From: Chiloscyllium plagiosum
Lineage: Eukaryota
Assembly: GCF_004010195.1 (NCBI RefSeq)
Contig: NC_057756.1
Coordinates: 5,331,774 to 5,379,763, forward strand
Direction of reading: 5' to 3'
DNA length: 47,990 nt
Shown here: piece by piece, positions 12,053 to 41,153 of the stretch
Numbering within the stretch: the first letter of the stretch is position 1
Layout of the letters: each line of letters begins with the position of its first letter
The notes under the pieces: generated by a model
The model's database searches: none
The model's input: only the letters and a program-made list of their open reading frames with translations
What the model was told of the DNA's origin: nothing
Translations under genes and position numbers: made by a program

Positions 12053-12054
12053 CA

Positions 12055-14775: not shown

Positions 14776-14778
14776 TCC

Positions 14779-16695: not shown

Positions 16696-16899
16696 CCCCG
16701 TGTCTGCGTGGGTTTCCTCCGGGTGCTCCGGTTTCCTCCCACAGTCCAACAATGTGCAGGGTCAGGTGAATTGGCCATGCTAAATTGCCCATAGTGTTAG
16801 GTAAGGGGTAAATGTCGAGGTATGGGTGGGTTGCGCTTCGGTGGGTCGGTGTGGACTTGTTGGGCCGAAGGGCCTGTTTCCACACTGTAATGTAATGTA
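16696..16899 (+). mobile_element. HE1/V-SINE-like SINE, 3' portion
   Basis: GGGTTTCCTCCGGGTGCTCCGGTTTCCTCCCACAGTCCAA core; (TGTAA)n tail; similar to 36450-36657. Confidence 0.9.
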
Positions 16900-17914
16900 A
16901 AATGTACTCCTTGTAAATCCTTGAGGTGATACATTTTGGAAGGCCAAACGCAGGAGGAAGGGATACTGTACATGCAGAACCCTTAGAAGCATGAAGATGC
17001 AGAGGGACATGGATGTACAAGTCCATAATTCCCTGAAAGTGGAAACAAACGTGGATAAGGTGGTCAAGAAGGCATACAGCATGCTTGCCTTCATCAGTTG
17101 GGGCATAGAGTCATGTTGCAGCTGTACAGAGCTTGAGTTCAGCCACATTTGGAATACTGTGTACAGTTCTGGTTGTCACACTACCAGAAGGATTAGGAGA
17201 CTATGGAGACAGTGCAGAAACTGTTTACCAGAATGTTGCCTGGTTTGGAGGGTGTTAGCTATGAGGAGAGATGGAACAAACCTGATTTGTTTTGACTTGA
17301 ACATCAAAGGATGAGGGGCAACCCTGATAGAAGTTCACAAAATTATAAGAGGCATGGATAGAATGAATAGTCGGAGTCTTTTACCCAGGATAGAAATCTT
17401 ACCGGGGGATCTAGGGTTAGGGTAAAGGGGAGTATGTTTGAAGATGCCTGAGGCAAGTATTTGACACAGTGGGTGTTAAGTGCCTGGAATGTGCTGTCAG
17501 ATGAGGAGGTGGAGGCGATTATGAGAGCAACATTTACGAGCCATCTTGCCAGATGAATATGTAAGGAATAAAGGGACATGGACGATGTAGAGGCAAAAAA
17601 AAATTAGTTTAGAAAGTCATCATGTGTCAGCAGAGTCTTGGTGGGCCAAAGGGCCAGTTGCTGTGCTGTATTGTGCTTTGTTATAATGGTGACTATAATA
17701 GTGTCCATAGCAGTGTGCACATGAGTGACGCCTCTATCAGTATTGATAATGGAGACTCTAACATTTTCTGTATCTCTGTCTCTATCAGTCTCTGTAGCAG
17801 TGTCTTTGTCAGTGATTACATCAGGGTTGATTACAGTGACCACTACTGTGTCTGTAATAGTATTTGTAACAGTTTTTATAACAATATCTATAAGACAGGC
17901 TACAAGCATGTCTA

Positions 17915-18115
17915 GATTGTGTTGCTGGAAAAGCACAGCAGATCAGGCAGCATCCGAGGAGCAGGAAATTCGATGTTTCAGGCCAGAGCGTTTCATCAGG
18001 AATCAGGGCTCCAGCCTGGAACATGGATTTTCCTGCTCCTCGGATGCTGCCTGACCTGCTGTGTTTTTCCAGCAACACACTCTCAACTCTGATCTCCATC
18101 ATCTGCAGACCGCTC
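17915..18115. mobile_element. Fold-back PLE pLTR mini-element (type B, older)
   Basis: Inverted arms around ~18003; diverged 15-bp TSD at 17900-17914 and 18116-18130 (3 mismatches). Confidence 0.8.
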
Positions 18116-21100
18116 CTACAACCGTATCTATACTAGTGAGTATAATGGTGTCATAACAGCCTCTATACAAGTTTCTACAACAGTGTCTGTAACAAAGTTT
18201 ATGACATTATTTATGAGTGCGTATAACAGTGACTAGAAATTTGTTTGTATCACTGTCTATAATAGCGACTATAACAGTGAGGATAACAATGTTATAAAGT
18301 GTCGATGTCAGTGATTCTAACAGGTTCTGTGTCAATGTCTGTAACAATGTTGATAAAAGTCTTTATTTCAGTGTCAATAGCTGTTTCTATGTCAGTGCCT
18401 ATAACTGTTTCTCACAGTGGCTAAATGACAGTGTCTACAACAGTGTCAATGTCAGTGAGTACAACAGTATCTACATCAGTATCAATACCAGAGATTATGA
18501 TAGCAACAATACTCATGACTTTAATAGTTTCTATCACAGTATTTATAACATTTTCCATTGCAGTGACTGTCTATCAGAGTGTCTACAACAGTGTCTAGCA
18601 CAATATCTATGTCAGTGTTTGTCAGTGACTGTAGCACTATCTATATCAGCATCCAAAGCAGACAGTAAAGTAACATTGTCTGTAACAGTGAGTATGTCAG
18701 TATCTATCACAGTGATACCGTTGTGTCTAAATCAGTGAATGTATCAGTGTCTGCACCAGTGTCTATATCAGAGACTACAGCAATGTCAAAGTCAACTAAT
18801 TTCATAATGTCTATTTCAGGGTCTATAATAGTGATTATAACAGTCTTAATAAGTGTGTTAATAACAGTTCAGTATCTATAACAGTGTTAACGCCTAACTA
18901 TTTCAGTATCTAGCAATGTGACTATCACAGGATAGGGCAATGCCTTTATCAGTGTCTATAATAGTAACTAGTGTCAATAACAGAGTTAGAATCAGTAACT
19001 ATGGGCAGTGATTTTATCACTTTCTATAACAGTGATTACATTTTGGCTTTAACTGTCTATAAGAGTATTTATATCAGTAACTATGTGAGTGTCTAGCACA
19101 GTGACACAGTTTAAAGTAGTGTCTGTAATGGTGACTGCAACAATGTCTGTCACACCATCTAAAACAACATCCATGTCAGTGTCGATAATAGTTTCTTTCA
19201 CAGTGTCAAAACAGTATCTATATCAGTAGCTAAAACAGTCTCTATATCTACCTTCATGACAGTATCTGTAATGGAATGTAAAGCAGTGTGTATAACAGTG
19301 ACTATAACAGTGTTCATATCAGTGACTGTTAATAGTGTTTCTGTCAGTGTCTACAGCTGTATCTATGGCAGTGTCTATAACATTATCTGTAATGGTGGCT
19401 TTATCATTGTCTGTAATGGTATCTGTGACAATGATTATAATAGTGTCTTTTCAAATGTCTATAACAATATCTACATCAGTGTTATAACATTATCTTTCAG
19501 CATTTGTAGTGTGTATATTATTGCCTATAACAGAATCTACATTATTGTCTATCATCATGATTATATCAGTGTCTATATTAAGTGACTGGAACAATATCAT
19601 ATCAGTGCCTATATCAATCATTGTATCAGTGTCTATGTCAGTGACTAAAGCAGTGTCGATGACAGTGTCTATATACAGTGTCTATAACTCTGTATATATA
19701 ATGTTATCCATAACAGTGGTTATAATAATGTATATGACATGGTCTTTAACAATTTATATAACATAGTCTCTAGCAATATCTGTAACAAGGCCTTCAACAG
19801 TATCTATACCAGTGAATGTAATTATGACTCTGACAGTGCCTATTTTAATGTTTACAACAGTGTTAACATAATAGCATCTCTAACAGTGTAAAAGCATCAG
19901 AATTTATAACAGCATATATAATAGTGTTGACAAATGTAACTCTGTCAGTGTCTATACATTCATATGTGTTTTAATGTATATACAGAACCCATTGACACTG
20001 ACTCTATCCATGTCTATAACAGAGTCTGTAACGTTGACTAAGACAGTGTATAACAGTTTCTATAACAGTGTCTATGACAATATTTACCGGTATATCAGAA
20101 ACTTTCACAGTGTTTGTTACAGTGTCTGTAACATTATCTACAAAATTGTCTATATGAGTGTCTATAGAAATGCCTATGCCAGTGCTTACATCATTGTCTA
20201 TAATATACCTATAGCATTCTGTATAATATTGTCTATAACCATGCTGATAAAAGCATCTACAACAGTGCCTATAACAGTGTCACTATAGGCCTGTACAATT
20301 GTCTATCACAGTGTCATTATCGATGAATATAACAGTGTCTATAACATTGTCTATAGAAGAGAGTATAACGATATCGATAGTGGGATTTGTAAGATTGTCT
20401 ACAACAGTAAATATGACAGCGATGATATCAATGGTCAAAACGTTGTTGACAAAAGGAGTATCTATCACAGCAGCTATAAAACTAAGGCTGTAACACAGTA
20501 TTCTGCTCTCTGTTCTGCTGCCTTGATGCATTTTGTATGGTACAATCTCCCTGTATAGCACTCAAAACAGCACTTTTCACTGTATCTCAGTACATGCGAC
20601 AACAGGAAAGTAAACTCAAACATGTCTATTACAGTGTCAACAACAGTGTTGATATAGGACTGACAACTGGTATCTATACCAGTAATGACAACCGTGTTTA
20701 TCACTGTCTCTATAAAAATGTCTATTACAGTGTTAATAACAACTTCTATAAAAGTCTTTCTTAAAATATCTATAACAGTATCACTAACAGTGTTGATAAA
20801 AGTTTCTATTAGTGTTTGTGATATCATTTCTGTCAGTGATAAAAGTGACAATAATATTGTCTATCACAGGATCTATATCAGTGATTTTAACATTGTCTAT
20901 AACAGTTTCTATAATGCTGTCTACAACAGTATCTATAACATCATCTATGATAATGTTCATAACAATTCCATGTCATTGCCTATGAAAGTACCTATAACAT
21001 TGTCTGCAAGTGACTTTGGTAGTGTAAATATCAGTGTCTATATTAACAGCTATAACATTATTAATAAGTGTCCAAAACAATGTAGTAACATTGTCCATAA

Positions 21101-23071
21101 CTGTGCCTATAACAATATCTAGAACAGTGTCTATAACTATGAATATACCAGTGTGTGTAATAGTATATTTATCTAAATAAGTCTACATAACAGTATCATT
21201 ATGTATTATTGTTATAACATCTATAACATTCTGTAGAAGAAGCTATAACAATGACTTTAATGGTATCTATAAGATGTCTACTTCGGTAATTATAATTGTG
21301 ATGATATCATTGGCAATTGTCTATATCAGCGACCGTAACAATATCTATAATAGTGACACTTACCATATCTATAATAGTATCTATACCAGTGCCTATATCA
21401 GAGTCTACATCAGTGACTATATCACTGTTTATATCAGAGATTGAAACAGTGTCTATAAATATGGATATAATGGTGTCTATAAAAGAGTCAATATGATGGT
21501 CTATATCAGTGTCTATAATTAGTAGTTGTATAAGTAGCTTTAACAATGTTTCTGACAGTGATGATATCAGTGGCCAAATCAGTGTTGATAACAATACCTT
21601 TATCAGAAACCAGAATGGTTTCCATCACAGTCTCCATAACATTGTCTATAGCAGTGTGTATTAACGTATCCTTAGCAATTCCATTAGCAGTCTGTAACAT
21701 TCTCTATATCAGTGAATGTAACAATCTCTATAACAGTGTCTATACTAGTGACTATATCAGTGACTATAACAATATCTATGACAGTGATTATAACAGTATT
21801 GATATCAGAATCTGTAGCAATCCCTATATTCATATCTATGACAGTGTCTGTAACAATAACTATAACAGTGATGATATCAGTGTCATTAATATTATCTATA
21901 GCAGAAACAGAACAGTTTCTATCACTGTCACTATAACAGTGTCTGTAACAGTAACTAGAACAGGGTCGATAATAGAGTCTTTAGAATTGTCTATTACAGA
22001 GTCTAAAGCAGTTTCTCAATCTGTCTGTATGACAGTGTCGACAGAAGCTCTATCAGTGCCTCCTACCCATTATAACAGTGCGTATTATCATTGTCTATAA
22101 CAGTAGTTATAAAACTGTGTATAAAAACATTTAATACAGTTACTATATCAATGTCTCTAATGGTGTCTATCTCATGGACTATAACAGTGCTGCTGACAGT
22201 GTTTATATCAGCATCTGTAATATTATCTATAATGCTCTCTGTAACAATGTCTATAACACTAACTATAACAGTGTCTTTATCGGTGACTAGAACTGTATCT
22301 ATAAAAATGTATTTAACATTGTCTATGGCTGTAACAGTATTAAGAGCAGTGTATATAACAATATCTACCTCAGTCTTTATAGGAGTTACTTTATCAGTGT
22401 CTATAACATTATGTATAAGTGCATAAAATAGTCTATGACAATGTCTTTAGCAGTGTGCATAGCAGTGACTATAATTGTGTCTATAACAGTGTCCATATCA
22501 TAACCCATAACAGTGACTATATCAATGTCCATTTCTGTGTATTTATGTGTCTATATCACTGAATCCAGCAGTGACTATAACAATGTCCATTTCTGTGTAT
22601 TTATAAGTGTCTATATCACAGAATCCAGCAGTGACTATAACAATATCTATAGAAGTGTCTAGATCAACATCTATATCAGTTTGTATCAGTGACTGTAGCA
22701 TTGACTGTAACAGTATCTATGATAATGACTATAACATTGTCTAAAATAGCATCAGTATCAATGCTTGTAACATTGTTTATATAACTCTCTATAAAAGTGA
22801 CCAAGACACTGTCTATATCTGTGCCTATACCACAGTCTATATCAATAACTATAACAGTGGCTCGAACAGTCTCTATAACAGTGAACGGTGACAATCTTAT
22901 TGACTATAATAGTATCTGTAATGGTGACTAGGTCAGTGCCTATATTAGTGTCGATCCCAGTAACTACTCATATACAATACTGCTTGTAAAAGCATTTATA
23001 ATAGTGTCTATATCAAAATCCATAACAGTCTCTATAATGGTGTACATAACAGAAACTGTAACAATGTCAAA

Positions 23072-23571
23072 NNNNNNNNNNNNNNNNNNNNNNNNNNNNN
23101 NNNNNNNNNNNNNNNNNNNNNNNNNNNNNNNNNNNNNNNNNNNNNNNNNNNNNNNNNNNNNNNNNNNNNNNNNNNNNNNNNNNNNNNNNNNNNNNNNNNN
23201 NNNNNNNNNNNNNNNNNNNNNNNNNNNNNNNNNNNNNNNNNNNNNNNNNNNNNNNNNNNNNNNNNNNNNNNNNNNNNNNNNNNNNNNNNNNNNNNNNNNN
23301 NNNNNNNNNNNNNNNNNNNNNNNNNNNNNNNNNNNNNNNNNNNNNNNNNNNNNNNNNNNNNNNNNNNNNNNNNNNNNNNNNNNNNNNNNNNNNNNNNNNN
23401 NNNNNNNNNNNNNNNNNNNNNNNNNNNNNNNNNNNNNNNNNNNNNNNNNNNNNNNNNNNNNNNNNNNNNNNNNNNNNNNNNNNNNNNNNNNNNNNNNNNN
23501 NNNNNNNNNNNNNNNNNNNNNNNNNNNNNNNNNNNNNNNNNNNNNNNNNNNNNNNNNNNNNNNNNNNNNNN
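23072..23571. other. Assembly gap (500 N)
   Basis: N run. Confidence 1.
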
Positions 23572-24599
23572 GGTTTAATATCCTTTTATTAGCCGATTCG
23601 TTCCAAAAAACACCTGTGCTGTGCTGTAATGTGTTATGTTGTATTGGTCTAATATCCGGTATTAGACAAATGGTACCATAAAGGTACTGTACTGCGCTGT
23701 AACGCTGTTTGTTCTGTCAGTCTAACTTCCTTTATTAGCCGAGCTATTCCACAAAGGGCCTGTACTGTGCTATAATTATCTACTGTCTATAACTATATTC
23801 CTCTATTTGCCGAGCGGTTCCATAAACGACCGGTGTTGCTGTGTAATGTGCTACGTTGTATTGGTCTAATTTACGGTATTAGCCGAAGGGTACCATAACG
23901 GGCCTGTTCTGCGCTGCAATGCTGTAGGTCCTACCAGTCTAACTTCCTTTATTAGCCGAGCTGTTTCAGGAAGGATCTGTACTGCGCTGTAATGTGCTAT
24001 GTCGTGTTGGTCTAATGTTCGGTATTAGCCGAGTGGTTCCATAATGGACTGTGCTGTGCTGTAATTCTCTACTCACTATGAATCCATATTCCTTTATTGG
24101 CCGAGCGGTTCCATAAAGAGCCTGTACTGTGCTTGAATTGTCTACGTCTATGAGCTGTATTCCTTTACTTGCCGAGCGGTTCCATAAAGGCCTTCTTCTG
24201 CTCTGTCATGTGCTATGTTGAATTGGTCTAATGTCCGGTATTAGCCGGATGGTACTATAAAGGACCTGTACTGCGTTGGAATGCCGTATGTCCTATCAGT
24301 CTAACTTCCTTTATTAGCCGAGATGTTGCATAAAGGGCCTATACTGTGCTTTAATTGTCTATGAACTCTATTCCTTTACCTGCCGGGCGGATCCATAAAG
24401 GAAATGTACTGCTCTGTCATGTGCTATGTTGTATTGGTCTAATGTCCGGTATTCGCAGAGTGGTACTAAATAGGGCCTGTACTGCACTGTAATGCTGTAT
24501 GTTCTATCAGTCTAACTTCCTTTATTTGCTGATCTGTTCCATAAAGGGCCTGTACTGCGCTAGAATGTGTTATGTTGTATTGGTCTAATGTCGTTATTA

Positions 24600-24800
24600 T
24601 CTTCGAGGAGAAAGTGAGGACTGCAGATGCTGGAGATCAGAGCTGAAAATGTGTTGCTGGAAAAGCGCAGCAGGTCAGGCAGCATCCAAGGAACAGGAGA
24701 ATCGACGTTTCGGGCATAGGCCCTTATGCCAGAAACATCGATTCTCCTGTTCCTTGGATGCTGCCTGACCTGCTGCACTTTTCCAGCAACACATTTTCAG
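24600..24800. mobile_element. Fold-back PLE pLTR mini-element (type B)
   Basis: Arms meet in hammerhead stem II (~24723); TSD CTAATGTCGTTATTA at 24585-24599 and 24801-24815. Confidence 0.9.
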
Positions 24801-25478
24801 CTAATGTCGTTATTAGCCGAGTCGTTCCAAAAGGCACCTGTGCTGCGCTGTAATGTGTTATGTTGTATTGGTCTAATGTCCGGTATTAGCCGAATGGGAC
24901 CATAAAGGGTCCCATTACTGGCTGTAATTCCGTATGTTCTATCAGCCTAACTTCCTTTATTAGCTGAGCGGTTCCATAAAGGACGATTTTGGCGAATACT
25001 GGACATTGGACCAATACAACATAACAGATTACAGTGCAGTACACGGCCTTTATGGAACCGCTCGGCAAATAAAGAAATATAGTTCATAGAACGTAGAGAA
25101 TTATAGAGCAGTACAGGCCATTTATGGAACAGCTCGGCTAATAACGAAAGTTAGACTGACAGAACATAAGGCATTACATCGCAGGACAGGCCCTTTATGG
25201 TACCATTCGGCTAATACCAGACATTAGACCAATAGAACATAGCACAATACAGGGCATTACAGGTCCTTTTGGGTACCGCTCGGCCATTACTGGACATTAG
25301 ACCAATACAACAGAGCACATTACAGCAGAGTACAGCCCCTAAATGGAACCGCTCGGCTAATAAAGTAAGTCAGTGTCATATAACAGGAGAAAGTGAGGTC
25401 TGCAGATGCTGGAGATCAAAGTTGAAACTTTATTGCTGGAACAGCACAGCAGGTCAGGCAGCATCCAGGGAACAGGAG

Positions 25479-25514
25479 ATTCGACGTTTCGGGCACAGGC
25501 CCTTCTTCAGGAAT
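25479..25514 (-). ncRNA. Minimal type I hammerhead ribozyme (type B), core intact
   Basis: Minus strand ATTC-CTGAAGA-A-GGGC/ctgt/GCCC-GAAA-CG-TC^GAAT; 4-bp stem I. Confidence 0.8.
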
Positions 25515-25729
25515 GAGCAGAGAGTGTTCAGCAGGAGAAGATAAAAGGTAGGGAGGAGGGACTTGGAGGAGGGGAGTTGGAAATGTCTTCTTCTTGACCT
25601 CTCCGCCTCCACCCTACTCCGACCTATCACCCTCACCTTGACCTCTTTCCACCTATCACATTTCCAACGCCCCTCCTCCAAGTCCCTCCTCCCTACCTTT
25701 TATCTTCTCCTGCTGAACACTCTCTGCTC

Positions 25730-25765
25730 ATTCCTGAAGAAGGGCCTGTGCCCGAAACGTCGAAT
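25730..25765 (+). ncRNA. Minimal type I hammerhead ribozyme (type B), core intact
   Basis: ATTC-CTGAAGA-A-GGGC/ctgt/GCCC-GAAA-CG-TC^GAAT; predicted cleavage after C25761. Confidence 0.8.
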
Positions 25766-27454
25766 CTCCTGTTCCCTGGATGCTGCCTGACCTGCTGTGC
25801 TGTTCCAGCAATAAAGTTTCAACTTTGATATCCAAATGAATCCAACAAGAACTGGACCAAGCATATGTGGTACTCATAATCTTCTTCATCCTAAGTATAC
25901 GCATGATTTTACTACAACTGCTAAGTATTTCATCAGTAATATTTTCAGCAACATAACACAAAACATCGCAGATAAGAAAAACTGCAGCATATTAACATGC
26001 CAAATTTCCCCTAAAGTAAATGCATTAAAATTCCATCAAATTTGACAATATTGTTATGTATTTGGCTTTAAGGGGTTAACACGTAGGGGGTTCCATACAA
26101 CAGCCAAGCAGGGTGAGATCAATAGTTGTGATGTTGAGAAGATATGCTCGAGATGCGGTGGAGGGCACCGTCGAACACGTCGGGGGGGAAATTGCGGTCC
26201 TTGAAGAAGGAGGCCATCTGACTGTCATATAACAAACAGCATTACAGCGCAGTACAGGCCCTTTATGGAACCACCCGGCTAATAAAGGAATATAGAATCA
26301 AAGATCATAGAGCATTTCAAAGCAGTACAGATTCTTTGTGGAATCGCTCGACTACTAAAGGCAATTAGTCTCATTGAACACAGAACATTACAGCGCAACA
26401 CAGGCCCATTATGGAACTGCTCAGCTAATAGAGGAAGTTAGAATAATACAACACAGAACATAACAGCACAGTACAGGCCCTTTATGGAACCACTCGGCTA
26501 ATACCGGACATTAGACCAATAGAACATATAACATTACAGTGCAGTACAAGTCCTTTAGGGAATCGGTCGACTAATAGAGGAAGTTAGAGTCATAGAACAT
26601 ACAGCATTACAGCGCAGAACACACCGTTTATGGAGCCGCTTGGATAATAAAGGAAGTTAGACTCATAGAACATACAGCTTTACAGCTGTACAGCTGTTGT
26701 ATTAGTCTGGTGTCCATTATCTCCCGAGCGGTTGCGTAAAGGGCCTGTACAACGTTGTGGTATTCTTTGTTGTATTAGTCTAACTACATTTATTAGCTAA
26801 GCGGTTCCACAAAGGGCCTGTACTGCGCTGTAATGCTCCATGTTCTATGAGTCTTACTTCCTGTATTAGCTGAGCGAATCCATAACGTGCCTGTACTGCG
26901 CTGTAATTTTCCATTTTCTATCAGTCTAACTTCCATGATCATGCAAGCGATTCCATATAGGGCGGGTCCTGCATTGTAATGTTCTATGTTGTATTAGTCT
27001 AGTGTCCATTATTAGCCAAGCGGTTCCGTAAAGGACCTGTACTGCGCAGTAATGCCCCATATTCCATGAGTCTAACCTCCTTTATTAGGTGAGTGGTTCC
27101 ATAGACAGCCTGTACAGCACTATAATGTGTTCCATCTTATGTTTGTCAAACGTCTGGCATTAGCCAAGCGGTTCTTTGAATGGCCTGTATTGTGCTGTAA
27201 TGCTTCTTGTTCTATGAGTCTTACTTCCTTTATTAGCCAAGCATTTCCATGAAGGTCCTGTACTGCGCTATAATATTCCATGTTGTGTTTGACAAAGTTC
27301 CAGTACTACCAAGCTGTTACATAAAGGGCCTGTAATGCGCTGTAATGTTCCACGTTGTATTAGTCAAACTTCCTTTATTAGCGCAGCGGTTCCATAAAGG
27401 GCCTGTACTGTGTTGTGATATCCTGTGTTGTATTAGTCTAACTGCATTTATTAG

Positions 27455-27656
27455 TTGAAACTTTATTGCTGGAACAGCACAGCAGGTCAGGCAGCATCCA
27501 GGGAACAGGAGATTCGACGTTTCGGGCACAGGCCCTTCTTCAGCCTATGCCCGAAACGTCGAATCTCCTGTTCCCTGGATGCTGCCTGACCTGCTGTGCT
27601 GTTCCAGCAATAAAGTTTCAACTTTGATCTCCAGCATCTGCAGACCTCACTTTCTC
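27455..27656. mobile_element. Fold-back PLE pLTR mini-element (type B, same subfamily as 25386)
   Basis: Near-perfect inverted arms; TSD CTAACTGCATTTATTAG at 27438-27454 and 27657-27673. Confidence 0.9.
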
Positions 27657-28816
27657 CTAACTGCATTTATTAGCCAAGCAATTCCACAAAGAACCTGTAC
27701 TGCTTCTGTAATGCCCAATGTTCAATGAGTCTAACTTCCTTTATTCGGCGAGGGGTTCCATAGACAGCTTGTACAGCGCTGTAATGTTCTATGTTGAATT
27801 AGTCGAACTTCGTTTCTTAGACGAGTAGTATCATAAAGGGCCTATACTGTGCTGTTATGTTTTATGTTGTATTAGTCTAACTTCCTTTATTGGCTGAGCA
27901 GTTCCATATTGGGACTGTGTTGCACTGTAATGTTCTATCTTCAATAAGTTTAATTGCCTTTAGTAGTCGAGTGGTTCAATAAAGGGCCTGTACTGCGCTG
28001 GAATACTGTATGTTGTATGAGTCTAACTTCCGTCATTATCCAAGCGGATCCATAAACAATCTGCACTGCGCTGTAATGCTGTATGTTCTACGACTCTAAC
28101 TTCCTTTATTAGCTGAGCGGTTTCATCAAGGGCCTGTTTTGCGCTGAAATGTTCTATGTTCAAGAAGTCTAATTGCCTTTAGTAGTCGAGCGATTCCATA
28201 AAGGAATCGCTGTAATGTGCTATGTTGTATTGCTTTAATGTCCGGTATTAGTCGAGTGGTTCCATAAAGGGCATGTACTGTTATGTTCTATGTTGTATTA
28301 GTCTAACTTCCATTATTAGCTGATCTGTTCCATAAAGGGCCTGTACTGCACTGTAATGTTTTATTTTGTATTAGTCTGGTGTCCATTATCAGCCAAGCGG
28401 TTGAGTAAAGAGCCTGTAATACATTGTGGTGTCCTTTGTTGTATTAGTCTAACTTCATTTATTACCCAAGCGGTTCCACAAAGGGCCTGTGCTGCGCAGT
28501 ACTGCGCTGTAATGTTCCATGTTCTATGAGTCTCACTTCCTGTATTAGCTGAGTGAATTCATAACGTGCCTGTACTGCGCTGTAAGTTTCCATTTTCTAT
28601 CAGTCTAACTTCCATTATCATGCAAACGATTCCATATAGGGCTTGTCCTGCATTGTAATGTTCTATGTTGTATTAGTCTAGTGTCCATTTTTAGCCAAGT
28701 GGTTCCATAAAGAACCTGTACTGCGCAGTAATGCCCTATGTTCTATGAGTCTAACTTCCTTTATTTGGCGAGCGGTTCCATAGATAGAACATTTCAGCGC
28801 TGTACAGGCTATGTTT

Positions 28817-28906
28817 AAAAATGTGATGCTGGAAAAAGACAGCAAGCCAGGCAGCATCCAAGGAGCAGGAGAATCGACGGTTTGGGCATAAGCCCTTCTT
28901 CAGGAA
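28817..28906 (-). mobile_element. Single-arm PLE pLTR fragment (type B), hammerhead mutated
   Basis: Similar to 24646-24725; ends GGGCATAAGCCCTTCTTCAGGAA. Confidence 0.8.
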
Positions 28907-29447
28907 TGTTGAATTAGTCAAATTTCTTTTCTTAGATGAGTGGTTGCAGAATGGGCCTGCACAGAGCTGTGATGTTCTCAGTGGCATTAGTCTGGAGTCC
29001 ATTATCAGGCGAGCAGTAACATAAAGGGCCTGTCCTGCGCTGTAATGCCCCATTTTCAATGGGTCTACTTTCCTTTATTAGGCGAGCGGTTCCATAGACG
29101 GCTGATACAGCACTGTAATGTTCTATGTTGTATTAGTCTAACGTTGTTTATGAGTGGAGCGGTTCCATAAAGGGCATGTACTGTGCTGTTATGTTCTATG
29201 TTGTATTAGTCTATCTTCCTTTATTGGTGGAGCACTTCCATAATGGGCCTTTGTTGCGCTGTAATGTTCTATCTTCAATGAGTTCAATTGCCTTCAGTAG
29301 TTGAGTGGTTCCATAAAGGGCCTGTACTGCGCTGTAAAGCTGTACGTTCTATGAGTCTAACATCCTTTGTTAGCCGAGTGGTTCCATCAAGGGCCTGCAC
29401 TGTGCTGTTATGTTCTATGTTGTCTTAGTTTATGTTCTCCTTTATTA

Positions 29448-29653
29448 GGAGAAAGTGAGGACTGCAGATGCTGGAGATCAGAGCTGAAAAATGTGTTGCT
29501 GGAAAAGCGCAGCAGGTCAGGCAGCATCCAAGAAGCAGGAGAATCGACGTTTCGAGCATTCCTGAAGAAGGGCTTATGCCCAAAACATCGATACTCCTGC
29601 TCTTTGCATGCTGCCTGACCTGCTGCGCTTTTCCAGCAACACATTTTTCAGCT
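29448..29653. mobile_element. Fold-back PLE pLTR mini-element (type B)
   Basis: Inverted arms; TCCTTTATTAG on both flanks (~29438-29448 and ~29660-29670). Confidence 0.88.
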
Positions 29654-31897
29654 CTAACTTCCTTTATTAGCTGAGCAGTTCTATCATGGGCCTGTGTTGC
29701 ACTGTAAAGTTCTATGTTCAATGAGTCTAATTGCCTTTAGTACATGAGTGGTTCCATAATGGGCCTATACTGCGCTGTAATTCTCTACGTTCTATGTATC
29801 TACATTGTGTTATTAGCCGAGCGGTTTGTAAAGGACCTGTACTGCGTTGTAATGTGCCATGTTGTATTGGTCCAATGTCCAGTATGAGACTAGTGATTCC
29901 ATAAAGGACTGTACTGTGCTGTTATGTTCTGTGTTGTATTAGTCTAACTTCCTTTATTAGCTGAGCAGTTCCATAATGGGTCTGTGTTGCGCTGTAATGT
30001 TCTATGTTCAATGAGTCTAATTGCCTTTAGAAGTCGAGCGATTCCACAAAGGAACTGTACCGTGTTGAAATGCTCTACATTCTTTGAATCTATATTCCTT
30101 TATTAGCCGAGTGGTTCCATAAAGGGCCTGTACTGCGCTATAATGCTGTATGTTCTATGAGTCTAACTTCCTTTATTAGCCGAGCGGTTCCATCAAAGGG
30201 CTGTACTGTGCTGTAATGTTCTATGTTGTATTGGTCTAATGTTCGGTATTAGCCGGATGTATCCATAATGGGTCTGTACTGTGTTGTAATTCTCTATGTT
30301 CTGAGAATCCATATTCCTTTATTAGCTGAGCGGTTCCATAAAGGACCTGTACTGCGCTGTAATGTGATATGTTGTATTGGTCTAATGTCCGGTATTAACC
30401 GAGCAGTTCCCTAAAGGACATGTACTGCGCTGTAATGCTGTGTGTTCTATGAGTCTATTCCTTTATTCGCAGAGCTGTTCCATAAAGGGCCTGTACTGCA
30501 CTGTAATGCTGTTTGGTCTATGACTCTGACTTCCTTTATGAGCTGAGCGGTTCCATAAAGGACCTGTACTGCGCTATAATGTTCTATGTTGTATTGGTCT
30601 AATGACAGGTATTCGCTGAGTGCTACCATAAAGGGCCTGTACTGCGCTGTAATGTTCTATGTTGTTTTGGTCTAATGTCCAGTATTAGCCGAATGGTTCC
30701 CTAAAGGACTTGTACTGCGCTGAATGTTCTATGAGTCTAGCTTCTTTTATTTGTCGAGCAGTTCCATAAAGGAACGATACTGCACCGTAATGTTCTATGT
30801 TGTATTTGTCTAATGTCAGATATTAGCCGAGTGGTTACATAAAGGTCCTGTACTGCGCTGTAATGCTGTTTGTTCAATGACTCTGACTTCCTTTATTAGC
30901 CGAGCGCATCCATCAAGGGGCTGTACTGTGCTGTTATGCTCTATGTTGTATTTGTCTAATGTTAGGTCTTAGTCGAGTTGTACCACAAAGAGCCTGTACT
31001 GCGGTGTAATGTTCTATGTTGTTTTGGTCTAACGTCCGGTATTATGATCTTTGATTCTATACTCGTTTATTAGCCAAGCTGTTCCATAAAGAGCCTGTAC
31101 TGCGCAGTAATGTTCCATGTTATATTGGTCTAATGTCCGGTATTAGCCGAGGGTATCCATAATGGGTCTGTGCTGTGCTGTAATTCTCTATGTTCTGAGA
31201 ATCTATATTCCTTTTATTAGCCAAGTGGTTCCCTGAAGGACCTGTACTGCGCTGTAATGTGCTATGTTGTATTGGTCTAATGTCCGGTATTAACCAAGCG
31301 GTTCCCTAAAGGACATGTACTGCGCTGTAATGCTGAGTGTTCTATGAGTCTATTAGCAGAGCTATTCCATAAAGGGCCTGTATTGCGCTGTAATGTTCTG
31401 TGTCGTATTGGTCTAATGTCTGGTATTAGACGAGCAGTTCCATAAGTTCAATGACTCTGACTTCCTTTATTAGCCGAGCGCATCCATCAAGGGGCTGTAC
31501 TGCGCTGTAATGTTCTATGTTGTATTTGTCTAATGTCAGGTATTAGCCGAGTGGTACCATAAAGAGCCTATACTGCGCTGTAATGTTCTATTTCATATTG
31601 GACAAATGTCTGGTATTAGCCAAGCTGTTCCATAAAGGTCCTGTACTGCGCTGTAATGCTGTCTGTTCAATGACTCTGACTTCCTTTATTAGCCGAGCGC
31701 ATCCATCAAGGGGCTGTACTGCGCTGTAATGTTCTATGTTGTATTTGACTAATGTCAGGTATTTGCCGAGCACTTGTACTGTGCTGTTATGTTCTGTGTT
31801 GTATGAGTCTAACTTCCTTTATTAGCCGAGCAGTTCCATCATGGGCCTGTGTTGTGCTGTAATGTTCTATGTTCAATGAGTCTAATTGCCTTTGGTA

Positions 31898-31970
31898 AAA
31901 ACAATGACTGCAGATGCTGGAAACCAGGATCTGGATTAGTGATGCTTGAAGAACACAGCAGTTCAGGCAG
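31898..31970 (-). mobile_element. Short PLE pLTR fragment (subfamily seen at ~7630-7676)
   Basis: GACTGCAGATGCTGGAAACCAG..GGATTAGTG; TSD CTAATTGCCTTT(G/A)GTA at 31882-31897 and 31971-31986. Confidence 0.85.
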
Positions 31971-32349
31971 CTAATTGCCTTTAGTAGTCAAGCGATTCCA
32001 CAAAGAATCTGTACTGCGTTGAAATGCTCTATGATCTCTGATTCTGTGTTCCTTTATAAGCCGAGCGGTTCCATAAAGGACCTGTACTGTGCTGTAATGT
32101 GCTGTGTTGTATTGGTCTAATGTCTGGTATTAGCCGAGTGGTGCATAAAGGGCCTGTATTGCACTGGAATGCTGCATGTTCACTGAGTCGAACTTCCTTC
32201 ATTTGCCGAGCTGTTCCATAAAGGGCATGGACTGCGCTGTAATGCTGTTTGTTCTATGACTCTGACTTCCTTTTATTAGCCGTATGGTTCCCTAAAGGAC
32301 CTGTACTGCGTTGTAATGTTCTATGTTGTATTGGTCTAACATCCAGGAG

Positions 32350-32620
32350 AAGAAAGTGAGGACTGCAGATCAGAGCTTAAAAATGTGTAGCTGGAAAAGC
32401 GCAGCAGGTCAGGCAGCTCAAAGGCTTATGCCCGAAACGTCGATTCTCGTGCTCCTTTGATGCTGCCTGACCTGCTTGGTCTGACATCCGGTAAGAGAGA
32501 AAGTGAGGGCTGCAGATGCTGGAGATCAGAGCTGAAAATGTGTTGCTGGAAAAGCGCAGCAGGTCAGGCAGCATCCAAGGAACAGGAGAATCGACGTTTC
32601 GGGCATAAGCCCTTCTTCAG
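32350..32620. mobile_element. Two adjacent PLE pLTR insertions (fold-back ~32350-32475; single arm 32497-32620 with an intact minus-strand hammerhead core at ~32589-32622)
   Basis: TSD GACATCCGGTAAGA at 32483-32496 and 32621-32634; TTGGTCT(A/G)ACATCC flanks the first insert (32331, 32476). Confidence 0.85.
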
Positions 32621-33524
32621 GACATCCGGTAAGAACCAAGGGGTGTAATGCTGTATGTTCTGAGACTCTAACTTCCATTATTAGCCGAGCGGTTCCATCA
32701 AGCGCTTGTACTGCGCTGTAATGTTCTATGTTACATTGGTCTAATGTCCAGTATTAACCAAGTGGTACCATAAAGGGCCTGGACTGGGCTGTAATGCTGT
32801 GTGTTCTATGAATCTAACTTCCTTTACTAGCCGAGCTGTTCCATAAAGGGCCTGTACTGCTCCGTAACGTTGTTTGTTCTATGACTCTGACTTCCTTTAT
32901 TAGCTGACCAGTTCCCTAAAGGACCTGTACTGCGGTGTAATGTTCTATGTTGTATTGGTCTAATGTCCGGTATTTGCCGAGTGGTTCCATAAAGGGAACT
33001 GTACTGTGCTGTTATATTCTGTGTTGTATTTGTCTAACTTCCTTTATTAGCTGACCAGTTCCATCATGGGCCTTTCTTGCACTGTAATGTTCTATGTTCA
33101 ATGAATCTAATTGCCTTTAATACTCGAGCGATTCCATATAGGATCTTTGATTCTATATCCCTTAATTAGCCAAGCGGTTCCATAAAGGGCCTGTACTGCT
33201 CTGTAATGCTGTTTGTTCTATGACACTGACATCCTTTATTAGCCGAGCGGTTCCATCAAGGGGCTGTACTGCGCTGTAATGTTCTATGAACATAACACTT
33301 CTGTTTTCGCCGAGCAGTTCATTGAGGGCCTGTACTGCGCTGTGATGTTATATGTCGTAGTGGTCTAACTTGCTTTATTAGCCGAGCAGTTACATAAAGG
33401 GACTGTATTGCACAGTAATGTAATATGTCCTGAGTCTAACATTCTTTATTAGCTGAGCGGTTCTGTAAAGGACTGAAAAAGCGCTGTAATGGTCCATGTT
33501 GTATTAGTCTAATGTCCTTTATTA

Positions 33525-36185
33525 GAGCTGAAAAATGTGTTGCTGGAAAAGTGCAGCAGGTCAGGCAGCATCAAAGGAGCAGTAGAATCAATGTTTTGGG
33601 CATAAGCCCTTCTTCAGGAATGAGGAGGGTGTGCCAAGCAGGCTAAGATAAAAGGTAGGGAAGAGGGACTTGGGGGAGGGGCGTTGGGAATGTGATAGGT
33701 GGAAGGAGGTTAAGGTGAGGGTGATAGGCCGGAGAGGGGGTGGGGGCGGAGAGGTCGGGAAGAAGATTGCAGGTCAAGAAGGCGGTGCTGAGTCTGAGGT
33801 TTGGGACTGAGAAAAGGTGGGGGGGAGGGGAAATAAGGAAGATGAAGAAATCTGCATTCATCCCTTGTGGTTGGAGGGTTCCTAGGTGGAAGATGAGGCA
33901 CTCTTCCTCCAGGTGTCGTGTTACCATGGTTTGGCGATGGAGGAGGCCATGGACCTGCATGTCCTTGGCGGAGTGGGAGGGGGAGTTAAAGTGTTCAGTC
34001 ACGGGGTGGTTGGGTTGGTTGGTGTGGGTGTTCCAGAGATGTTCTCTGAAATGTTCCGCAAGTAGGCGGCCTGTCTCCCCAATGTAGAGGAGGCCACATC
34101 GGGTGCAGCGGATGCAGTAAATGATGTGGATGGAGGTGCAGGTGAATTTGTGACGGATGTGGAAGGATCCCTTGGGGCCTTGGAGGGAAGTGAAGGGGGA
34201 GGTGTGGGCGCAAGATTTGCATTTGTTGCTGTTGCAGGGGAAGGTGCCGGGAGTGGAGGTTGGGTTGGTGAGGGTTGTGGACCTGACGAGGGAGTCGCGG
34301 AGGGAGTGGTCTTTCTGGAACACTGATAGGGGAGGAGAGGGAAATATATCCCTGGTGGTCGGGTTGTTTTGGAGGTGGCGGAAATGACGAAGGATGATAC
34401 GATGTATCTGGAGGTTGGTGGGGTGGTAGGTGAGGACCAGTGAGGTTCTGACCTGTTGGCGATTGGAGGGGCGGGGTTCAAGGGTGGAGGAGCAGGAAGT
34501 GGAGGAGATGCGGTGGAGAGCGTGGAGGAGATGCGGTGGAGAGCATCGTCAACCACGTCTGAGGGGAAATTGCAGTCTTTGAAGAATGAGGCCATTTGGG
34601 TTGTTCGGTATTGGAATTGGTCCTCCTGGGAGCAGATTTGGCGAAGGTGAAGGAATTCGGAATATGGGATGGCATTTTTACAGGGGGCAGGGTGGGAGGA
34701 GGTGTAGTCTAGGTAGCTGTGGGAGTCAGTCGGTTTATAGTAAACGTCCGTGTTGAGTCGGCCGCCCAAGATAGAAATGGAGAGGTCTAGGAAGGGGAGG
34801 GAGGAGTCTGAGACGGTCCAAGTAAATTTGAGGTCGGGGTGGAAGGTGTTAGTAAAGTGGATGAACTGTTCAACCTCCTCATGGGAGCACAAAGTAGTGC
34901 TGATACAGTCATCGATGTAGTGGAGGAAAAGGTGGGGGGTGGTGCCAGTGTAGCTGTGGAAGATGGACTGTTCCACATATCCTACGAAGAGGCAGGCATA
35001 GCTGGGGCCCACGCGGGTGCCCATGGCTACTCCTTTGGTTTGGAGGAAGTGGGAGGATTGGAAAGAGAAGTTGTTCAGAGTGAGGACCAGTTCAGTCAGT
35101 CTAAGGAGGGCGTCAGTGGAAGGGTACTGGTTGGTTCGGCGGGAAAGGAAGAAGCGAAGGGCTTTGAGGCCTTCATGATGGGGGATGGAGGTGTATAGTG
35201 AGGTTGGGGTTGGAGCAGAGGGAGTGGAAGGCTGCATGTTGTGAGGGTGAGAGGTTGGAGTAGGCAGGTTGAGGCGGTCAATGTCGCAGCGTCATTGAGG
35301 GTGGGTAAGAGGCCAGCACAGGGTGTCCAGGTGGATGGGGTGTGTTGGAGGCGGGAGAAGGGGTCGTCAGATGGTGGGCAGGAGTCCTGGTTGAAGAAGT
35401 AGGCGCGGAGGCGAAGGCAGCGGAAGAATTGTTTGATGTCTCGCTGCATGTTAAACTCGTTAATCTGGGAGCGTAGGGGAATTAAGGTGAGGCCTCTGCT
35501 GAGGACTGATCTTTCATCCTCAGAGAGTGGGAGGTCTGGAGGGATGGTGAAATTACGGTAGGGCTGGGCGCTAGGACCTGGTGTGGGGCTGGAGCTGGGA
35601 GTGGGGGTGGGGATCGGCGTGGATCGGCATGGGGACGCGGTTAGGCGTAGGGGCGGAGCTCGGTGTGGTGGCGGGGATTGGCGTGGGGGTGGGGATCAGC
35701 GTGGGGGTGGGGATCAGCGTGGAGGCAGGGTTCAGTGTGGGGGCGGAGACGCATGTGGCGTGATCATTGTGCAAGTGAGTTACGTCACTGGGGGCGGACG
35801 TAGATGTGGCGACGGCAACTCCGGGAGCGGAAGTGGCTGCAGCGACAGCAGAAACAATGTTGTTCCTGGTGGTTGTGGACCCCGCAGAGGCTGCGAATCT
35901 GTCGTGATAGTCTTCCTGGTGATCGTGGAGGCGGTTGTCTGGGCGGCGATCGTGGAGGCTGCATGGTCGGTGGGGGCGGAAGCGACGTCATGGTTCGCGA
36001 CGGTGGTTGCTGCAGCAGCCGCGTGGTTAATGGCACCCGAGCGGTTCCGGAGGCCGATCGAAGATTCTGGAACGCCTGAGGAATCCGGAATGTGGGGGTA
36101 AGTACATGAAAGTTTTTGGTACTTACTGTCTTTAATTTCCGATATGGCTAGGAAGAACTGTTTGTTTAGTGTATGGATTCTTTTG
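33525..36185 (-). mobile_element. Penelope-like retroelement, Neptune-type; 5'-truncated, frameshifted, with an internal deletion near 35195
   Basis: N-region LSEDERSVLSRGLTLIP and FFRCLRLRAYF; RT motifs LYTSIPH, GVAMGTRVGPSYA, YIDD, LPFLD, YYKPTD; Cys linker PCNSNKCKSC; GIY-YIG IIYCIRCTRCGLLYIGETGR; pLTR 33525-~33830 with mutated hammerhead. Confidence 0.93.
33826..35540 (-). pseudogene. Disrupted PLE polyprotein (reverse transcriptase + GIY-YIG endonuclease)
   Basis: Track ORFs 35096..35449, 33999..35237 and 33643..34323 are successive frameshifted pieces; boundaries approximate. Confidence 0.88.
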
Positions 36186-36187
36186 TG

Positions 36188-39100
36188 GACAGCTGTCCCC
36201 TACAATGTACATAGGGCACTGCTGTCCCCTACAATGTACATAGGGACTGCTGTTCTCTATTTTATACAGAGGGACTGCTGTTCTCTATATTATACACACT
36301 GACGCATGTTCTCTACATTATACTGAGGGATAGCTGTTCTCCAGATTGTACACAGGGACTGCTGTTATATATATTATGCACAGTGACTGCTGTTCTCTAC
36401 AATAATTCCCACCTCAGGCGACTGACTGTGTGGAGTTTGCACATTCTCCCGTGTCTGTGTGGGATTCCTCTGGGTGCTCCGGTTTCCTCCCACAGTCCAA
36501 AGATGTGCAGGTCAGGTGAATTGGCCAAACTAATTTGCCCGTAGTGTTAGCTGAAGGGGTAAATGTAGGGGAATGGGTGGGTTGCGCTTCGGCGGGTCGG
36601 TGTGGACTTGTTGGGCCGAAGGGCCTGTTTCCACACTATATCTAATCTAATCTAATCTTAGACACAGAGACTGTTGTTCCCAATGTGAGACACAGCGACT
36701 GCTGTTCTATATAATAAACACAGGGATTGCTGCTCTCTTAATTAAACACAGGGATACCTGTTCTCTATATTGTACACAGTGACTCATGTTCTCTATATTG
36801 TGCACGGGGACTGCTGTTTTCTATATTATACACAGACACTGGTGTTCTCTTTATTATACACAGGGACAGCAGTTCATTTTATTATACACAGGGATTCATG
36901 TTCTGTATATTTTCCACATCTTATTCACTGGGACTGCTGATCTCCATATTAGACTCAGGGACTGTTGTCCTTTCCATTGTGCAGAGGAACTGATGCTCTC
37001 TCTATTATGCACAGGGACAGCTGTTCTCTGTATTATACACAGGGACTGCTGTTCACTGTATTATACACAGCAACTGTTGTCCCCTACAATGTACGTAGGC
37101 ACTGCTGTTCTCTGCATTGTGGGCTGGGACTGCTGTTCTCTCTGTTTTACACCGGGACTGGAGATCTCTGTACAGCCCAGATCTCTGGGCTGTTTAGTGG
37201 AATAGACACAGGTAGAGCTGTTGTTTATTTTGCACAGGGATTGCTGTTCTCTATATTACACGTAAGAACTGCTGTTCTCTATAGTGTGCAGAGGGACTGC
37301 TGTTCTCTACATCACACACAGGGACTGCTGGTCTCTACAATGCACAAAGGCTCTGCTGTTCTAGACATTGTGTACAGGGACTGCATTTCTCTACACTGCA
37401 CACTGGTTCTGCTGTTCTCCAGTGTATGCTGGACTGCTGCTGTCTAAATTATACCCAGGGACTGCTGTTCTCTACAATATATGCAAGGACTACAGTTCTC
37501 CACATTTCCACAGGAACTGTTATTTTACGCATTTTGGACACGGATTGCTGTTCTCTATATTGTACACAGGGACTGCTGTTCTCTGTATAATATAGAGAAC
37601 ACCAGTGTCTCTGTATAATATAGAGAACACCCATCTCTGTGTGTAATATAGAGAGCAGAAGTCCCTGTGCATAATATAGAAACAGCAGTTCCTGTGTCTA
37701 TCTTCGAGAACAGCAGTCCCTGTGTACAATATAGAGAACAGCAGTCCCTCTGTCTATTTTAGGGAACAGCAGTGTCTGTGCAGTATATAAAGATAAGCAG
37801 TCCCTGTGTGCAATACAGACAATAGCAGTTCATATGTATGATATAAAGAACAGCAGTGTCTATCTATAATATAGAAAACAGCAGTCCCTGTGCATAATAT
37901 AAACAACAGCAGTCCCTCTGTACAATACAGAGGACAGAACACAATATAGAGAAACACAGTCTCTGTGTACAATGTCAAGAACAGCATTCCCTGTATTTAA
38001 TCATGAGATCAGCAGTCTCGATGTATAATATAGAGAACAGCTGTCCCTGTGTCAATTTCAGAGAACTGCAGTGCCTGTCCATAATATAAAGAACAACAGT
38101 CCCTGTGTACAATATGGGGTACAGCACTCGCTGTGAACAATATGGAGAATAGCAGTCCCTGTGTATAATATAGTAAACAGAAGATGCTGTGTCTAATATA
38201 AAGAACATAAATCCCTGTGTTTTATAAAGAGAACATCCGTCCCTGCATATAATATAGAAAACACCAGTATCTGTGTATAATATAGAGAACAGCAGTACCC
38301 TTGTAAATTACAGGGAACAACAGTCCTTGTGTATAATATGGAGAAAAGCAGTCTCTGTATACATTGTCAAGAACAGCTGTTCCTGTGTTTAATAATGTGA
38401 ACAGCAGTCTGTGTATAAAATAGAAAAGAGCAGTCTCTTTGTCTATTTCAGGGAACAGCACTGCCAGTGCATAATATAAAGAACAGTAGTCCCTGTGTAT
38501 AATATTGAAAACAGCAGACGCTGTTTCTAATAAAAAGAACATGACTCCCTGTGTTTAATGAAGGGAACAGCCATCCCTGTGTATCATATAGAGAGCAGTC
38601 TGTGTAATATAGAAAACAGCAGTCCCTGTTTTCAATACTGAGAATATGAGACAGTGTGTATAATATAGAGAACTGCTTTCCCTGTGCGTAATATAGAGAG
38701 CAGCAGTCCCTGCATATAATATAAAGGACAGCAGTGCCTGTGTCAATTTTAGACAACAGCAGTGCCTGTGCACTCTATAAAAAACAGGATTCCCTGTGTA
38801 ATATACAGAGAACAGCAGTCACTGTGTATAATATAGAGACCACCAGTGTCTGTGTATAATGCAGAGAACGAGCAGTCCCTGTGTACAATATAGAGAAAAA
38901 GAGTCACTGTGTATAATGGAGAGAACAGATATCCCTGTGTGTAACATAGAGAACAGCAGTCCCTGTGTACAATCTAAGGGAGCAGCAGCACAGTCTTTAA
39001 TTTAGAGAGCAACAGTCCCTGTGTCTATTTTAGAGAACAACAGTCCCTGTGTGTAATATAGAGAACAGCAGTCCCTCTGTCTATTTTACAGAACAGCACT

Positions 39101-41153
39101 GCTTGTCCATTATATAAAGTACGGCATTCACTGTGTGCAATATAGACAACAGCAGTTCATGTGTATAATATAGAGAACAGCAGTCCCTCTGTCTAATACA
39201 GAAAACAGCAGTCCCTGTGCATAATCTGGAGAACAGCAGTCCCTCTGTATTATACAGAGAACAGCAGTCCCTGTGTTTAACAATGAGAACAGCAGTCTGT
39301 GTGTATAACATAGAAAAGAGCAGTCCCTGTGTCTATTTCAGAGAACAACAGACCTGTGCATAACATTGAGAACAGCAGGCACTGTGTATAATATTGAGAA
39401 CAACAGACACTGTGTCTAATAAAAAGAACATGATTCCCTGTGTTTAATGAAGAGAAGAGCTGTCCCTGTGTACAATATAGAGAACACCAGTGTCTGTGTA
39501 TAATATAGAAAATAGCAGTCTGTGTTTTCAATATCGAGAATGTGAGTCACTGTGTATAATATAGAGAACAGCTTTCTCTGTGTGTAATATAGCAAACAAC
39601 AGTCCCTGTGTCTATTTTTGAGAACAGCAGTGCCTGTGCACAATATAAAGAACAGGAGTCCCTTTGTAAACTATAGAGAACAGCAGTTCATATGTAATAT
39701 ATAGAGAACAGCAGTGCCTGTGTACTATATAGACAATATGAGTCACTGCGCCTAATATAGAGAACAGCTATCCATGTGCAGAATATAGAGAGCAGCAGTC
39801 CCTGTGTCTAATATAGAGGACAGTGGTCCTGTGTATAATATAGAGGACAGCTGTGCCTGTGTCAATTTTAGGGAACAGCAGTGCCTGGGTAAAATATAGG
39901 GAACAGCAGTCACTGTATACAATATAGAGAACACCAGCGTCAATGTATAATATAGAGAACAGCAGTCCCTGTGTACAAGGTAGAGAATATGAGTCAGTGC
40001 GCATAACATAGAGAACAGCTATCCCTGTCTGAATTACAGAGAGCAGCAGTCCCTGTGTCTATTTCAGAGAACAGCAGTGCCTATTCACAATAAAAGACCA
40101 GCTGACCCTATATAAAACAGAGAACAGCAGTCCATATGTATCATCCAGAGAACATTGGTCACTGTGTACATTATAGAGAAAAGCACTCTCTGTGTACAAT
40201 GTCGAGAACAGCAGTCCCTGTGCATAACATAAAGAACAGCAGATGCTGTGTCTAATATAAAGAACATGAATCCATGTGTTTAACAAAGATAACAGCCATC
40301 CATGTGTATAATATAGAGAACACCAGTGCCTGTGCATTATATAAAAAACAGCAGACCCTGTGTGCAATACAGACAACAGCAGTTCATATGTATCATATAA
40401 AGATCAGCAGTCCTTCTGTACAATACAGAGGACAGAAGACAATAAAAGAGAAACACAATCTCTGTGTACAATGTCGAGAACAGCTGTCCCTGTATTCAAT
40501 CATGAAATCAGCAGTCTTGATGTATAATATAGAGAACAGCTGTCCCTGTGTCAATTTCAGGGAACAGCAGTGCCTGTGCATAATATAAAGAACAACAGTC
40601 CCTGTGTACAATATGGAGACCAGCAGTTCCTGTGTATAATATAGAGAACAGCAGTCCCTGTGCGTAATATAGAGAGCAGCAGTCCCTGTGCGTAATATAG
40701 CGAGCAGCAGTCCCTGTGCGTAATATAGAGAGCAGCAGTCCCTGAGTCCCTGTGTCTATTTTAGAGACCAGCAGTGCCAGTGCACAATATAAAGAACAGC
40801 AATCACTGTGTAAAATATAGAGAATAGCAGTTCATATGTATAAGAAAGAGAAGAACATTCCCTGTGTCTTATTTAGAGGACAGCAGTCCATTTGTAAAAT
40901 ATAGAGAAAAGCACTCTCTGTGTACAATGTCGAGAACAGCAGTCCCTGTATATAATATAGAGAACAGCAGACGCTTTGTCGAATATAAAGAAAATGACTC
41001 CCTGTGTTTAATGAAGAAAACTTGTGTGTAATATAGGGAGTAGCAGTCTCTGTGTCTAATATAGGGAATTACAGTCACTGTGAAAAAATAGAGAATAGCT
41101 GTACCTGTGTTTAATATAGGCAACAGCAGTCCCTGTGTCTAATATAAAGAACA
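36188..41153. repeat. 28-bp tandem satellite, consensus ~CACAGGGACTGCTGTTCTCTATATTATA (satellite D); orientation flips at ~37588
   Basis: CAGCAG recurs at 40621, 40649, 40677; the reverse-complement monomer dominates after ~37590. Confidence 0.95.
36405..36658 (+). mobile_element. 5'-truncated HE1/V-SINE-like SINE
   Basis: TGTGTGGAGTTTGCACATTCTCCCCGTGTCTG core; (TCTAA)n tail. Confidence 0.9.

Follow-up and report, generated by a model that had tools for sequence, protein, structure and literature searches.

Why do retroelements interrupt a satellite array again and again at the same position of its monomer? The question is raised by a 73-bp satellite array of Chiloscyllium plagiosum (RefSeq assembly GCF_004010195.1, contig NC_057756.1), which occupies positions 23573..33525 on the forward strand of the stretch analysed here (47,990 nucleotides, contig positions 5,331,774 to 5,379,763; hereafter the window) and is interrupted by nine inserts of a Penelope-like element (PLE). 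An initial annotation of this DNA had attributed the pattern to a PLE/satellite targeting system. The hotspot is real, and we consider it likely that it was made by a weak local preference which the PLE exerts genome-wide, and not by targeting of the satellite.

The monomers of the array are about 82% like the satellite consensus, from which their numbering is taken (position 1 is the first T of TTAG), and segments are inverted within it. Six of the nine inserts (24585, 27438, 29438, 31882, 32483, 33509) join the monomer at positions 72-4, which we call site 1, with the junction ...TTATT^AG. Two of these are fold-backs of pseudo-long terminal repeats (pLTRs) in opposite element orientations: one of subfamily A with its long tail on the left (24600..24800; 15-bp target-site duplication, TSD, 24585-24599/24801-24815, ending at position 3) and one of subfamily B with its long tail on the right (27455..27656; 17-bp TSD 27438-27454/27657-27673, ending at 4). 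A further subfamily A fold-back (29449..29659) has an exact 11-bp TSD (29438-29448/29660-29670, ending at 4). Two inserts on the reverse strand are one-armed, one of subfamily C (31894..31970; 12-bp TSD 31882-31893/31971-31982, ending at 72) and one of subfamily A (32497..32620; 14-bp TSD 32483-32496/32621-32634, ending at 3). The sixth is a decayed reverse-strand PLE coding for reverse transcriptase (RT) and endonuclease (EN), 33524..36190 with an approximate far end: its 3' short end is joined at site 1 (junction 33509, positions 2-4), no TSD was found, and the far end enters another repeat.

The remaining three inserts lie elsewhere on the monomer. A subfamily B fold-back with an extended arm (25386..26222) has a 12-bp TSD from 25374 at positions 49-60, in the region of a second hotspot, site 2; an inverted monomer piece with one pLTR arm (28783..28905, as read from the sequence) has no TSD and borders near sites 3 and 2; and a decayed fold-back (32345..32475) has a 14-bp TSD from 32331 with one mismatch (positions 56-69), outside the three hotspots. 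The initial annotation had counted seven of nine inserts at one position, which was generous by one, since the TSD of the 32331 insert ends 5-8 nt short of site 1. It had set apart those at 25386 and 28817 as using other positions: they are indeed off site 1, but they are not random, as each (25374 and 28783 in our coordinates) sits on one of the two other hotspots. Its remark that most of them duplicate the preceding 11-17 bp agrees with TSDs of that length in seven of the nine, whereas the GGTA it took for the flank of the 31882 insert is the start of the element, because the same letters precede subfamily C in two other loci (L036 and L050). The inserts at 32331 and 32483 lie in one common monomer and have target bases in common (window 32331-32634); the former is probably the older, because its TSD has a mismatch.

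Mapped onto monomer coordinates, the junctions are clustered and not spread: the probability that at least six of nine inserts fall within any 6-bp stretch is 0.0009 if all positions are equally likely and 0.001-0.034 when the null is weighted by AT content with increasing strength, and with one of the nested pair removed, five of eight remain at site 1 (P = 0.007). The six site-1 inserts are independent events, because they differ in pLTR subfamily (three are represented), orientation (both occur), start register and host monomer variant; their inner junctions differ as well. They are thus not copies of one amplified event, as had been stated from the outset. That the inserts descend from a single ancestral insertion, or from a few, multiplied through amplification of the satellite, is contradicted for the window by these differences and by exact TSDs that agree with their own monomer variants. 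Three duplicate pairs with identical flanks among other contigs, and some insertions into a LINE-like repeat (see below) that share short-end letters and may be amplified, speak for such descent, to which we nevertheless assign next to no probability as the cause of the hotspot.

Is site 1 then the preferred position of the satellite at large? Insertions outside the window were collected from 12 satellite-bearing loci (from 20 fetched plus L002) and from gapped-pattern genome searches, their positions being read by hand. Three identical-flank duplicates, all non-satellite matches and seven rows whose satellite context was unclear (C101917, C101964, C98799, C3:21566571, C19:65721666, C4:132436778, C16:72429359) were removed, and paired ends were merged. 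Among the resulting 39 insertions, 9 are at site 1 (taken here as 72-6, with one borderline case at 6), 21 at site 2 (top strand 57-59, bottom strand 45-48), 5 at site 3 (top strand 20-23) and 4 elsewhere. Hence 35 of 39 fall within 20 of the 73 monomer positions (P = 5e-16, with windows defined after the data had been seen). One gapped-pattern search was blind to site 1 on the top strand and was the sole source of two site-2 rows, and anchors at positions 13-23 were blind to site 3; in the fetched 10-kb loci by themselves, sites 1, 2 and 3 have 3, 4 and 3 insertions. The monomer is strongly non-uniform as a target, and the position first noticed is not its chief hotspot. Within the satellite, no robust strand bias of the long tail emerged: the T-rich strand was favoured in some searches and usage was about even in others.

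A plain preference for AT-rich DNA would be a simple explanation of such peaks. The AT content of TSDs that end at site 1 or 2 is among the highest (0.68-0.72), and the published preference of PLEs is for AT-rich DNA or ATT (PMC11167929, PMC3846280). The AT content of the monomer, however, forms a broad plateau from about position 48 to 3, AT-only nulls produce no sharp peaks, and site 3 receives 2-8% under these nulls yet has 5 of the 39 insertions. Moreover, non-satellite TSDs are 62% AT versus 60% in their flanks, and the strongest signal at those sites is a C. An explanation by AT richness therein appears scarcely credible to us.

The proposal that the element is directed to a single position by recognising this monomer, or the chromatin on it, draws on the six of nine inserts and the sevenfold density in the window array, on the recurrence of site 1 in nine cases on other contigs, and on a suggestion (PMC8557442) that Neptune-type linkers mediate a bias towards repeats. 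It is opposed by the lead of site 2 elsewhere (21 of 39) and by the density of pLTR blocks: the 12 other satellite-bearing loci show no enrichment over other DNA (P = 1.0), with 1.4 blocks per 10 kb in satellite (10 in 69.9 kb) and 1.5 per 10 kb in the remainder (35 in 228.6 kb of other DNA), figures which cover these 12 loci without the large chromosomal arrays C17, C24, C27, C37, C40, C9, C34 and C8. Two of the best 30 pLTR loci in the 3.56-Gb assembly lie in satellite, one of them being the window itself. Raw reads point the same way: coverage of the site-1 junction on its satellite side amounts to 7, 27 and 11 reads per run (monomers less than 80% alike being missed), whereas long-tail junctions with other flanks number about 40,000 in each run. 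When reads were aligned to the monomer plus a pLTR arm, joints from satellite to pLTR were too rare to list, and depth and flank consensus were usable. The family thus has neither most of its copies in one target repeat nor a single position within the target, both of which mark site-specific retroelements of the R2 or PLE-X type. A dispersed LINE-like repeat behaves equally, and dedicated targeting is largely refuted and keeps a very small residual probability.

This repeat, resembling a long interspersed nuclear element (LINE), holds a hotspot of its own in its 3' end: one junction about 60 bp inside the end is common to 17 of the 29 matches outside the satellite, on 14 contigs. Ten short ends lie on the other side of this hotspot, and three of them pair with junctions of that set (C10, C12, C27); the TSD lengths of these three differ in different LINE variants, so these insertions hit intact LINE copies. 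Some copies have the same short-end letters and may stem from one event or have been amplified, and the number of independent events is therefore about 4 to 17. A pile-up of PLE junctions exactly at the end of the LINE-like tails was considered and is not claimed; the gap lengths look spread out.

If neither AT richness nor the satellite itself sets the positions, a rule learned outside the satellite should find them. We built a target matrix from 27 non-satellite insertions with TSD (54 nicks; TSD 11-18 bp, median 15), excluding L010 as a duplicate of L004, one 8-bp case, TSD-less ends and the flanks of 39 fold-back copies. The targets have a G directly 5' and a C directly 3' of an AT-rich duplication of about 15 bp. 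A C stands at +2 or +3 past the long-end TSD in 21 of 27 sites (36% expected, P = 2e-5), and the element has no C at the positions where this target C falls. The strength of the motif is 0.73 bits, and at most 0.41 in 300 random training sets. On the monomer the three highest peaks of the matrix are at 22/23, 58 and 3, and the three observed hotspots receive 0.61 of its weight versus 0.23 with random matrices, none of 300 reaching 0.61. In two empty copies of the LINE-like repeat (L018, L048) the matrix ranks the hotspot 1st of 63 positions, and a fixed-register version ranks it 2nd and 4th. Flanks in raw reads (about 19,000 per run in three runs, and contigs of a fourth) have A/T as their consensus, with a G at -16/-15 that is frequently followed by C at -14, and with T at -1; this G is the complement of the C past the other nick. 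Of the sequence- or structure-directed satellite system first proposed, direction by sequence thus survives, in that AT richness leaves the peaks unexplained, the events are independent and a matrix from non-satellite sites finds the hotspots; the dedication to the satellite does not.

A second regularity concerns the ends themselves. At both long-tail and short ends, 1-5 nt are common to target and element. The shared stretch is 2 nt or longer in 23 of 36 clean ends, compared with 7-8 when targets are swapped, and 0 of 5000 shuffles match this. The shared letters vary by register (TCTT, CA, CTG, AG, GG), and we therefore infer primer-template pairing in preference to a fixed nuclease motif.

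Taken together, we propose that a very abundant endonuclease-bearing PLE of Neptune/Nematis type inserts genome-wide with a weak but real local preference. Its GIY-YIG nuclease would nick the two strands at points some 8-16 nt from each other, favouring places where a C lies two to four bases 3' of the nick, and each nicked 3' end would then pair with a few RNA bases near one of two internal RT start sites; the target C would be read by the nuclease and the shared bases would reflect priming. Because both start sites begin with AG in the cDNA, targets with AG at both nicks would be favoured. Every copy of a repeat presents the same few best sites, so that insertions look phase-locked. The monomer would offer three such sites (top-strand junctions 72-4, 57-59 and 20-23), of which the window array happens to use the first most. 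A stricter version, which we advance tentatively and think somewhat doubtful, makes the PLE semi-site-specific: paired GIY-YIG domains would read one G:C per strand in the manner of homing nucleases, the nicks would lie about 13-15 nt apart over AT-rich DNA, and each nicked end would be obligatorily paired with the RNA at one or the other internal RT start site.

Several observations weigh against the proposed general preference. The matrix stems from 54 nicks, mostly of one subfamily; the read-flank consensus has an agreement of just 0.33; and one training site (L048) lies within a LINE tail that is homologous to site 2. The matrix puts the sites in the wrong order (3 > 2 > 1), the observed one being 2 > 1 > 3, in a sample for which several searches were blind to site 3, and a matrix from long ends alone puts sites 1 and 2 at 4th-6th. 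Against circular shifts, the profile comes 4th-6th of 73 for all insertions or those outside the window and 16th-18th of 73 for the window's nine inserts. Site 1 holds about 12% of the matrix weight, which therefore does not explain six of nine inserts in the window. The window array carries 8 pLTR blocks in 8.0 kb, about 7x the background density (P = 2e-4), and its site-1 share exceeds that found elsewhere (P = 0.018, or 0.042 once two biased rows are removed and 0.18 with fetched loci only). Finally, PAc, the Poseidon element of the green anole, which belongs to another clade, primes without homology in vitro according to PMC11167929, in contrast to the shared-base excess here.

The excess in the window could be explained by its choice after the fact, by easier assembly of interrupted arrays or by a local factor. 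The last would add to the general rule something peculiar to this array, such as an old or open state, earlier inserts drawing later ones, or monomer variants better suited to site 1. The density and the site-1 excess beyond the matrix fit this, as do the monomer that holds two inserts and a TTGGTCT variant upstream of site 1 that resembles the read consensus. On the other hand, the window was chosen because its pattern was conspicuous, insert-bearing arrays may assemble more easily, the profiles predicted for window and other monomers are nearly equal, and monomer divergence is similar to that of other arrays. We regard such a factor as unlikely, and retain the genome-wide preference as the explanation of the hotspot.

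What kind of PLE is involved can be read from the long copy, in which RT precedes a C-terminal GIY-YIG in adjacent broken frames on the reverse strand. The RT frame (33999..35291) matches RVT_1 (E = 4e-4), and a second frame (33643..34548) with a CX4CxxC linker, a GIY-YIG core and CCHH-type residues matches GIY-YIG (E = 0.008), both below the curated Pfam cut-offs; seven homologues (E = 1e-15 to 1e-42) are labelled RT and/or GIY-YIG. In translation, the CCHH motif has two cysteines between GIY and YIG (IIYCIRCTRCGLLYIG) followed by histidines. The linker upstream of GIY-YIG, CNSNKCKSC, conforms to the CX2-5CxxC pattern that defines the Neptune/Nematis clades in PMC8557442. The copies have the anatomy of endonuclease-bearing (EN+) PLEs, namely a pLTR with inverted copy, an optional tail and a TSD, and the short inserts are fold-backs in which one 3' end is long-tailed and the other short. 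Judged by these sequence features, the element fits an endonuclease-bearing PLE of Neptune/Nematis type. Read depth puts the family at about 230,000 pLTR cores. By eye, the pLTR contains a hammerhead-like core, CTGAAGA...GAAAC; an Rfam scan of 23570-36200 gave no hammerhead, only hairpin-driven miRNA matches under their cut-offs.

Two peculiarities of the inserts may be recorded here. The 206-bp fold-back (27455-27656) has 39 other near-identical copies genome-wide (95-100% identity over nearly the entire length) and is either a non-autonomous unit that became amplified or a stereotyped product. Past the short end, subfamily B pLTRs continue into the usual tail or into a different sequence (window 25835-26222; G000:C98317:7320-7386), and this second continuation could be a second template or splice form.

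The satellite itself occurs elsewhere in the genome (C8, C9, C17, C24, C27, C34, C37, C40 and many small contigs). Its monomer positions 19-58 align with the 3' tail of the LINE-like element at 35 of 39 bases, and since more than half of the monomer matches this tail, the satellite probably originated from a LINE 3' end. In the window, such tails lie at 13667-13705 and 42825-42865 (scores 62 and 55; shuffled maxima 28 and 27), the RT frame 41968-42594 being upstream of one. The repeat may be a CR1 element; what was observed upstream of one such tail is just an RT domain. Within 24982-26695 the orientation of the array is reversed twice, at points without pLTR, and an additional small inversion goes with the 28783 insert. 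Three other tandem repeats flank the array: a 31-bp repeat (1-3894), a degenerate 12-bp repeat (4400-23060), which also holds pLTR inserts at 9220, 10927 and 17911, and a 28-bp repeat (36187-41153). On G000:C93049, identical-score matches from 5783 onward recur at an exact 146-bp step, reflecting either a dimer array that is young and homogeneous or an artefact of assembly.

With these results a candidate satellite-targeting system is removed, and hits that recur at one position within a repeat prove to be no evidence of targeting. What is new, the target rule together with the shared-base excess, adds a modest detail to a known class. Both the rule and the pairing are testable in an existing in vitro system, and the family of about 230,000 cores is a very large natural data set for them. 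Should the semi-site-specific version hold, PLEs would have a defined two-part target code and would phase-lock in any repeat carrying it, and the view that PLE priming needs no homology would have to be revised. Titles and abstract openings, with subscription papers mostly uncovered, gave neither a PLE target consensus nor phase-locking of PLEs in a satellite.

How does this PLE compare with characterised systems? It shares with EN+ PLEs of the Neptune/Nematis type the RT, the C-terminal GIY-YIG, the CX2-5CxxC linker and the CCHH residues, as well as pLTRs, inverted copies, a variable TSD and a reported repeat-associated insertion bias; their bias, however, concerns microsatellites such as (TA)n, whereas the targets here are ordinary sequence in which G...C frames an AT-rich TSD (PMC8557442). 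PAc cuts both strands in vitro and has two internal RT start sites, which would account for the two kinds of fold-back 3' end, long-tailed and short. The present PLE would likewise extend both strands, and the two elements have a long tail and a short end and use AT-rich targets, but PAc prefers 5'-ATT-3' while the genomic junctions here have a C/G signal, and its clade lacks the zinc motif in the linker (PMC11167929). Penelope elements of Adineta likewise have an inverted pLTR, a tail and a TSD and show secondary insertion into an attractive region; they differ in their shorter TSD of 8-10 bp, and neither a target consensus nor phase-locking was seen in the excerpt (PMC3846280). In the homing endonucleases I-TevI (CNNNG) and I-BmoI (NNNNG), one or two G:C pairs within a short tolerant motif set the cleavage preference, although these enzymes bind DNA through a separate domain and have a long homing site, of which there is no counterpart here (PMC12774661); a link between their preference and the C signal of the PLE, a genomic correlation, would be one of analogy. 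Lastly, PLE-X of spike moss 28S rDNA also inserts repeatedly at one position of a multicopy repeat, but it is without nuclease and confined to its target (PMC8557442), whereas the family described here is dispersed and uses several positions.

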